DNA from: Escherichia coli
GTDB taxonomy: Bacteria > Pseudomonadota > Gammaproteobacteria > Enterobacterales > Enterobacteriaceae
Assembly: GCF_009931435.1 (NCBI RefSeq)
Contig: NZ_CP043414.1
Reading direction: 5' to 3' (one strand)
Length of the DNA stretch: 64,000 bases
Every line of letters begins with the position of its first letter. Position 1 is the stretch's first letter. Made by a program: the position numbers and the translations under genes. Below, in pieces: positions 225 to 332 of this stretch. Below the pieces are notes generated by a model. That model searched no databases, was not told where the DNA came from, and was given only the letters and a program-made list of their open reading frames with translations.

Positions 225-332
225 ATGCTGTCCCGCAGGGAACAAAAAGCTGCCGCCATTGCCTGGAAAATTATCCGGGCACTGTGGTACTGGCTGCGCA
301 AACCTCAGCAACCTCATAAGGAGCAAAAATGA
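225..332 (+). CDS. 35-aa hypothetical ORF inside lysis cassette
   Basis: ATG at 225, stop TGA 330-332 overlapping the endolysin ATG (ATGA); MLSRREQKAAAIAWKIIRALWYWLRKPQQPHKEQK; too short for the ORF track, read directly. Confidence 0.2.
   Translation: MLSRREQKAAAIAWKIIRALWYWLRKPQQPHKEQK

Follow-up and report, generated by a model that had tools for sequence, protein, structure and literature searches.

The window, a stretch of 64,000 nucleotides from an Escherichia coli contig (NZ_CP043414.1, assembly GCF_009931435.1), has 100% identity to the chromosome of E. coli strain 7_33_46A, and its first part, from position 1 to ~17,000, is the right half of a P2-like (Peduoviridae) prophage; 3' of the prophage lie raiA, bamD, rluD, yfiH, clpB and an rRNA operon. 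The full prophage is 37.5 kb long, with portal, terminase, capsid and tail genes all present. Locally the genes run in the order tail sheath, tail tube, holin, a 109-nt interval, M15 endolysin, 64 nt with a hairpin, tail assembly chaperone, a DUF6890 frame and tape measure, which places the lysis cassette between the tail tube and tail chaperone genes. The two prophage copies that were inspected in full are integrated beside raiA, and each has an IS66-family insertion, at differing sites (L001 1-1423; L118 11889-14477), namely the early region in 7_33_46A and the GPO scaffold gene in strain 700481; some copies of the prophage are clearly defective.

The holin is a 98 aa protein whose start lies 77 nt upstream of the window, so that only the 3' part of its gene (1..219, + strand) is contained here; it matches Pfam PF04550 (Phage_holin_3_2, E 1e-19) and is named 'phage holin family protein' by PGAP (L001 19923-20219). 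The endolysin (329..670, +) is a 113 aa M15 protein of the L-alanyl-D-glutamate type (PF13539, E 3e-11), in which no signal or signal-anchor-release (SAR) sequence was found; judged by this protein (75-80% aa identity), the closest cultured phages are Salmonella SI7, SW3 and SW5, Cronobacter ESSI-2, Escherichia ESSI2_ev phages and Yersinia vB_YenM_324. Comparison of gaps shows that the short intergenic stretch that follows (671..734, +) stands where relatives hold ~500 bp of Rz/Rz1. It contains a 13-bp stem-loop with a weak T-rich tail (677..708, +), terminator- or attenuator-like and conserved in the peptide clade described below; the stem-loop is also found directly after the endolysin stop at L111 6456-6487 and L024 2871-2902, folds with z-scores of -3.3 to -4.6 in the window, L023, L111 and L024 (with compensatory changes in L024), is weaker and partly broken in L110, and is absent from the spanin-bearing relatives inspected. 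Its role may be that of an attenuator separating the lysis from the tail genes, or it may be a remnant left when the spanins were deleted, and a second small hairpin may sequester the Shine-Dalgarno site of the chaperone; an Rfam search of window 1..1400 gave no match.

The tail assembly chaperone (735..1028, +; PF10963, E 2e-26; PGAP start 741) is the first tail gene 3' of the lysis cassette. Its gene ends in GTA AAA AAA TAA (1019-1025), and the 'DUF6890 family protein' called by PGAP at 1070..1216 belongs to a frame that is open from 989, at -1 relative to the chaperone; this frame is very likely a programmed -1 frameshift extension of the chaperone and not an independent gene, an arrangement that resembles lambda G/GT or P2 E/E'.

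Between holin and endolysin lies an ORF (225..332, +) with an ATG start and a TGA stop at 330-332, the product of which is MLSRREQKAAAIAWKIIRALWYWLRKPQQPHKEQK. From the frame itself, its conservation, dN/dS and in-frame deletions it is regarded as the gene of a 35 aa cationic amphipathic peptide, a candidate disruptin-like lysis protein. A Shine-Dalgarno sequence, GAGGAG (211..216, +), can be read within the last holin codons, 8 nt 5' of the peptide ATG, with equivalent sites 5' of the peptide start in L024 (GGAGG) and L111 (AAGGA). At the other end the TGA overlaps the endolysin ATG (329-331) as ATGA; across lineages the holin junction is an ATGA or GTGA overlap and the endolysin junction is ATGA or 14 nt. 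The Shine-Dalgarno sequence of the endolysin, AAGGAG (318..323, +), is read in the C-terminal codons of the peptide (K32 E33), and because it lies inside them the peptide tail, otherwise dispensable, is conserved at the DNA level. The ORF carries no PGAP annotation in any of the 15 RefSeq E. coli genomes listed or in either of the prophage copies inspected in full, and PGAP thus systematically overlooks the peptide gene; other annotation pipelines predict it, and an exact look-up retrieves the same peptide from public collections as a 'hypothetical protein' (e.g. EHO01281.1, UniRef A0A2X6GE95), in a cluster of 50 members at 90% identity on at least 1000 contigs. An earlier note on this DNA had described an unannotated 35 aa ORF between holin and endolysin, a small basic amphipathic product and ATGA coupling to the endolysin, and each of these descriptions is borne out.

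An open frame of 34 codons arises in shuffled sequence with P ~0.23, and comparative evidence was therefore relied on instead. The lineage of the window is represented in 40 of 5426 complete E. coli genomes, in E. albertii NBRC 107761 and on 19 IMG/VR and 5 metagenome contigs; hosts of the cassette are E. coli from many animals and also E. albertii. Three diverged lineages (that of the window; L111; L024/L110) retain an ORF that takes up exactly the space between holin and endolysin, with peptide identities to the window of 60% in L111 and about 25-35% in L024/L110; the L024 and L111 lineages were not found in complete E. coli genomes. L111 was reached through an exhaustive profile search of 1.84 billion representative proteins, in which a 39 aa protein (P0018, E 7e-7) proved to be encoded at this locus with the same architecture; the search returned nothing beyond the peptide's own three lineages, and a 1059 aa match (P0017) was rejected as a spurious summed score from a 14-fold repeat with 'CWQLLRACWQW'. 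In L024, L116 and L110 (L110 from an E. coli assembly) the ORF encodes 41 aa, MTGKKASPGILSGMRQFAVKVWQLLRSLQKLRNSMNGKTRP, with a GTG start that overlaps the holin stop and a stop that overlaps the endolysin ATG. On its own the similarity of the 41 aa product to the window peptide is weak (Smith-Waterman p ~0.04); the two have in common a core of W-(K/Q)-(I/L)-(I/L)-R-(A/S)-L, and W14, R18, L20 and L24 are invariant across lineages. The peptide is best filed, from these sequence comparisons, as a new family so far limited to three Escherichia prophage lineages.

Substitutions in the ORF follow the pattern of a coding frame. Pairwise Nei-Gojobori comparison of the window with L016 gives a pN/pS of 0.18 in the peptide frame (Fisher p 0.0004) versus 0.9-1.3 in the other two frames; the window and L111 give a peptide dN/dS of 0.30 (Fisher p 0.009), and L024 and L110 give 0.10 (8 synonymous versus 3 conservative changes, p 0.0007), with dN/dS ~3 in their other frames. 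Over the three comparisons the ratio is 0.10-0.30 in the peptide frame versus 0.5-3 in the other two. Between the window and L111, Arg18 is kept via a CGG-to-AGA double change. The first 21 loci examined in the window lineage fall into 11 haplotypes, and polymorphism there is distributed over codon positions as 8:8:10, a ratio that is uninformative alone. Internal indels of the ORF are multiples of three: a 3-nt deletion in L021 removes Ile12, and a 9-nt deletion in the metagenome locus L113 removes QQP. Premature stops are limited to the tail, where they follow residue 27 (P27; L013) or residue 33 (E33; L005, L008, L009). Since the ORF is kept in three lineages, shows a synonymous excess and has in-frame indels, it is considered a gene and not a chance frame; on this comparative evidence it is very probably a translated, selected and fast-evolving small gene. 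The conservation and ribosome-binding site that the earlier note had asked for are thus both present. It is concluded that the helix is constrained, whereas the C-terminal tail is largely dispensable and is kept mainly for the endolysin ribosome-binding site. The neighbouring genes are more strongly conserved: identities between L111 and the window are 82% for the holin, 95% for the endolysin and 94% for the chaperone versus 60% for the peptide, with a peptide dN/dS of 0.30 versus 0.05-0.08 in the neighbours. Between lineages the synonymous divergence (pS) is 0.4-0.86, with a dN/dS of 0.04-0.08 for holin, endolysin and chaperone, and the peptide changes at 4-6 times the rate of its neighbour genes. 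That these neighbours are under purifying selection despite the old divergence argues that the phages still must leave their cells.

The peptide is predicted to form a single amphipathic helix encoded by codons 4-25 (234..299, +), as judged by AlphaFold2, hydrophobic moment and charge. The AlphaFold2 model, made from an 8-sequence alignment, has one helix over residues 4-25 at a mean pLDDT of 74 and a tail that is short, basic and disordered. The polar stripe of the helix runs R4-K8-A11-K15-R18-Y22-R25 with Trp14/21/23 at the interface; on a helical wheel R4, K8, K15, R18, Y22, R25 and K26 fall within a 100-degree arc, with Leu, Ile and Ala on the opposite face and Trp14 and Trp21 at the boundary, and variants carry H or R in place of Y at position 22. 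The peptide of the window has a net charge of +7, those of L016 and L024 one of +9. Over 18 residues the hydrophobic moment reaches a maximum of 0.51-0.64 across the peptides and of 0.54 for that of the window, compared with 0.52 for phiKT gp28, 0.52 for magainin 2, 0.55 for melittin and 0.78 for LL-37; this amphipathicity is only modestly over that of shuffled controls (p 0.02-0.12). No transmembrane segment, signal peptide, lipobox or Cys was found in the peptide, its only hydrophobic stretch being interrupted by K15 and R18, and no profile match was returned from Pfam, PHROGs or PADLOC. An origin by duplication of the holin C-terminal tail was considered and is unsupported (Smith-Waterman against five holins, p 0.05-0.75).

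Rz and Rz1 are a transmembrane-anchored coiled coil and an outer-membrane lipoprotein, encoded 3' of the endolysin, that fuse both membranes. In SI7, ESSI-2 and vB_YenM_324, which were inspected individually, the holin frame overlaps or abuts the endolysin, and an Rz-like i-spanin with an overlapping lipoprotein o-spanin lies between endolysin and chaperone. Gaps were measured in 104 loci (80 from IMG/VR and 24 from species-representative genomes), ~100 of them intact with the holin-endolysin-chaperone layout; the genera surveyed include Enterobacter, Hafnia, Kluyvera, Yersinia, Serratia, Xenorhabdus, Photorhabdus, Morganella, Proteus, Providencia and Erwinia. Across the two sets taken together 21 loci bear the peptide, and Rz/Rz1 is absent in 21/21; in these the holin-endolysin gap is 109-127 nt and the endolysin-chaperone gap 67-99 nt. 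All other intact loci of this layout have Rz and Rz1 with an endolysin-chaperone gap of 464-945 nt and a holin-endolysin gap without the peptide ORF, at most 35 nt in all but two. L111, which was fetched separately, follows the same pattern of peptide present and Rz/Rz1 absent. Four loci are uninformative exceptions: L025 and L028 have their endolysin in another phage context (which in L025 includes a classical embedded Rz/Rz1), L103 is a truncated Proteus prophage remnant, and L105 gave no holin match. A scan of metagenome contigs that was independent of the peptide took the junction without spanins as its pattern (endolysin stop, 40-70 nt, then TTCYTGAC...TTAAMMGGA), and 6/6 matches carry an intact peptide ORF.

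Searches of the prophage for spanins elsewhere were negative. With three Rz and two Rz1 queries, tblastn over the whole 37.5-kb prophage (41 kb searched) gave nothing below E 0.5; a strict lipobox scan of the prophage gave one antisense match only, an artefact inside a replication gene; and a relaxed scan, which recovered Rz1 in 2/3 control phages, gave 28 matches that lie antisense or out of frame in known genes, together with one SPFH-domain protein in the early region, none of them spanin-like. No spanin is annotated in the second full prophage copy. An embedded frame at 630..722 (30 aa, MAIISALSTTAC..., MAIISALSTTACADF...) with a lipobox-like TAC motif was the sole candidate for the Rz1-like frame that the earlier note had suggested looking for, and it is judged not to be a gene because it is forced by the conserved endolysin end ...DGNHFSLEH(D/N)GVR, of which it is a by-product, and is also present in vB_YenM_324 beside a real Rz1; it has no Shine-Dalgarno site and no basic n-region. 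The remark that a hairpin and then tail genes follow the endolysin with no Rz/Rz1 pair was therefore correct, and the arrangement is indeed unusual when set against ~100 related cassettes. Because the presence of the peptide goes with the absence of spanins over these ~100 cassettes, the two are considered to be linked and not separate oddities. Chaperone identity is at least 83% within the peptide clade and at most 48% to spanin-bearing relatives; the clade is a single deep branch, and the correlation of gain and loss therefore has an effective n of 1. A single ancestral event, and not repeated evolution, probably underlies both.

Some 13-15% of the phages that infect Gram-negative bacteria are without a recognisable spanin. 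Only one disruptin, phiKT gp28, has been demonstrated. The protein was described by Holt et al. (bioRxiv 10.1101/515445; cited as Holt et al. 2022 in PMC12819732): gp28 is a 56 aa, +7, amphipathic protein whose gene lies between endolysin and holin in a coliphage that has no spanins. A lambda spanin-null mutant is complemented by gp28, which is located at the outer membrane and has a killing activity like that of LL-37; according to its authors it has no homologues beyond phage PGT2 (10.1101/515445). The cut-offs used for disruptins there are a length under 80 aa and a net charge of at least +4 (10.1101/515445). The peptide described here, at 35 aa and +7 with a predicted amphipathic helix and no signal peptide or transmembrane domain, falls inside these limits; it adjoins holin and endolysin in the window, L024 and L111, and belongs to a phage genome without spanins by Rz/Rz1 and lipobox searches. 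No homology to gp28 was found (hhalign probability 0.1%, 2 aligned columns). It also lacks the features of i-spanins, o-spanins and u-spanins, with no Rz/Rz1 match by tblastn; unlike spanins it has neither transmembrane domain nor lipobox and is too short to span the periplasm.

It is tentatively proposed, by analogy, that the peptide is a non-homologous functional counterpart of the gp28 disruptin that replaced the lost spanins. Slightly more tentatively still, it may found a second disruptin family, in which a helix of ~22 residues and +7 charge replaced Rz/Rz1 throughout a clade of temperate P2-like Escherichia phages. The peptide gene is very probably a late gene of the lysis cassette, translated together with holin and endolysin; on this proposal the holin would open the inner membrane and the M15 endolysin degrade the wall, after which the peptide could bind the anionic inner face of the outer membrane and destabilise it in the manner of cationic antimicrobial peptides, thereby taking over the job of the Rz/Rz1 pair that the clade has lost. 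The likeness to gp28 extends to the lack of signal sequence and transmembrane domain, the charge of +7, a predicted helix of similar moment (0.54 versus 0.52) and a coliphage without spanins; however, the peptide has 35 aa with one helix where gp28 has 56 aa, its phage is a temperate P2-like myovirus (Peduoviridae) where phiKT is a virulent T7-like podovirus, and the gene order is holin-peptide-endolysin here and endolysin-gp28-holin in phiKT. Unlike phiKT, the peptide clade has sister genera in which the ancestral Rz/Rz1 state is visible; the Rz/Rz1 of SI7, ESSI-2 and vB_YenM_324 occupy the same cassette in otherwise syntenic genomes and presumably carry out the same final lysis step as the candidate peptide. 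In size, charge density, amphipathic helix and interfacial Trp the peptide resembles LL-37, magainin 2, melittin and cecropin A; these are secreted, as part of host defence or of a venom, and reach the cell from outside, whereas the peptide is made inside the cell whose lysis it would aid, and there is no homology.

Several other readings of the locus have to be weighed against a disruptin-like role. The small proteins lambda S107, T4 RI and RIII and P2 LysA are encoded in or beside lysis cassettes and modulate the holin step, and the peptide, which the earlier note had suggested to be an antiholin or lysis regulator, is small and cassette-linked as they and LambdaSo Lcc6 are. The peptide could accordingly be a lysis-timing regulator (an antiholin, a holin modulator or an endolysin-release factor) that acts at the inner membrane or holin with no outer-membrane role, in a clade without any disruptor. 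Its gene lies directly 3' of the holin and is translationally coupled, binding to the inner leaflet of the inner membrane, or to the basic tail of the holin, would be feasible for a cationic amphipathic helix, accessory factors at the level of the holin are known, e.g. Lcc6 of Shewanella LambdaSo (10.1101/2024.01.23.576932), and a 'WLRK' motif weakly resembles the juxtamembrane tails of related holins. That last resemblance is undercut by the non-significant similarity of peptide and holin tails (p 0.05-0.75), and most antiholins are membrane proteins or holin isoforms, as known membrane-embedded antiholins and Lcc6 are membrane proteins, whereas the peptide lacks a transmembrane domain, is encoded by a gene of its own rather than being a dual-start holin isoform, and occurs only where spanins are missing. 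The ~100 spanin-bearing relatives need no such factor, and a regulator fails to explain virion genes under strong purifying selection in a spanin-less clade. The comparative data favour a spanin substitute of disruptin-like kind over the antiholin of the earlier suggestion, and an antiholin or regulator is retained as the main rival, one that is rather unlikely. A real, selected gene with a function unrelated to the envelope, such as a small toxin or a late host-modulating peptide, is more improbable: the evidence covers coding conservation only, without a family match in Pfam, PHROGs or PADLOC, and the sequence evolves fast, but in all three lineages the gene is wedged between core lysis genes with overlapping start and stop codons and its appearance coincides exactly with the loss of spanins.

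It is very improbable that the locus makes no functional protein and that the 110-nt spacer is a recombination scar or a regulatory RNA. Such an account can draw on the chance of an open frame of this length, on the RNA of 200-345, which folds somewhat better than shuffles (z -2.4), and on the missing PGAP call and the four premature-stop variants; against it stand the frame-specific synonymous excess in three independent comparisons, the retained Arg18, the deletions of 3 and 9 nt, retention of the ORF in L024 although its DNA is barely alignable to that of the window, and the lack of an Rfam match, while the stops are confined to a disordered tail that is itself held mainly by the endolysin Shine-Dalgarno sequence. 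Still less credit is given to spanins that are present but missed, either as an embedded lipoprotein frame or as an unrecognised unimolecular spanin in the prophage: the TAC motif of frame 630..722 and several tail-module proteins without an assigned function (10327..11587) would leave room for them, however the tail-module proteins match conserved tail-module PHROGs common to relatives, and neither the frame nor the tblastn and lipobox scans yield anything credible. ChiX of Serratia is an M15-type L-Ala-D-Glu peptidase, and the holin-endopeptidase pair of the cassette could by that token be a domesticated module akin to Type 10 secretion. Such systems derive from phage lysis cassettes (PMC13284979); this reading is scarcely credible here, as the cassette is embedded in a complete set of P2-like prophage virion genes and no secreted cargo gene adjoins it.

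Whether spanin-less phages generally use disruptins was still described as an open question in 2026 (PMC12819732), and the authors of the gp28 study note that the abundance of small cationic ORFs makes disruptins difficult to find with bioinformatics (10.1101/515445). The locus is a well-constrained candidate in this respect, being a single small conserved ORF of the cassette that is present exactly where spanins are missing; spanin-bearing sister genera make swaps possible, and a complementation assay for lambda Rz/Rz1 exists. If the peptide is active, few genetically tractable membrane-disrupting peptides would be smaller than its core helix of 22 residues. Were the peptide indeed the founder of a second disruptin family, the exchange of spanins for a peptide would be a recurrent and evolutionarily stable solution, and the two types of cassette, otherwise syntenic, would form a natural 'before and after' pair.

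Megablast of window 1..1100 against 50,697 phage records gave no match, tblastn with the peptide against the phage collection gave none, and the collection searched contains no cultured phage of the peptide clade. Upstream of the window (L001 8515-9793), ParM and a plasmid partitioning protein are encoded beside the prophage replication endonuclease, which hints at a phage-plasmid ancestry or lifestyle. Further along the prophage, window 5458-10330 holds two consecutive tail-fibre modules, the former consisting of a fibre (5458..7158) and an assembly protein (7161..7712) and the latter of a fibre (7719..9758) and a DUF4376 / tail-fibre PHROG protein (9728..10330); the second module has other genes in strain 700481. 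Window 13869-16799 encodes a 212 aa protein without a family match, a YafO-family toxin (14507..14887) and a 489 aa ATPase/nuclease that matches the PADLOC candidate defence protein HEC-04 (E 6e-204); since strain 700481 has Hok/Gef, Com and a DNA methyltransferase in the equivalent position, the region is considered a variable hotspot for defence or cargo genes. Beyond the prophage and after clpB, window 24300-30100 is poor in ORFs and contains a tRNA-Glu(UUC) at 26369..26444; this is consistent with an rRNA operon, presumably the one named rrnG in E. coli K-12.
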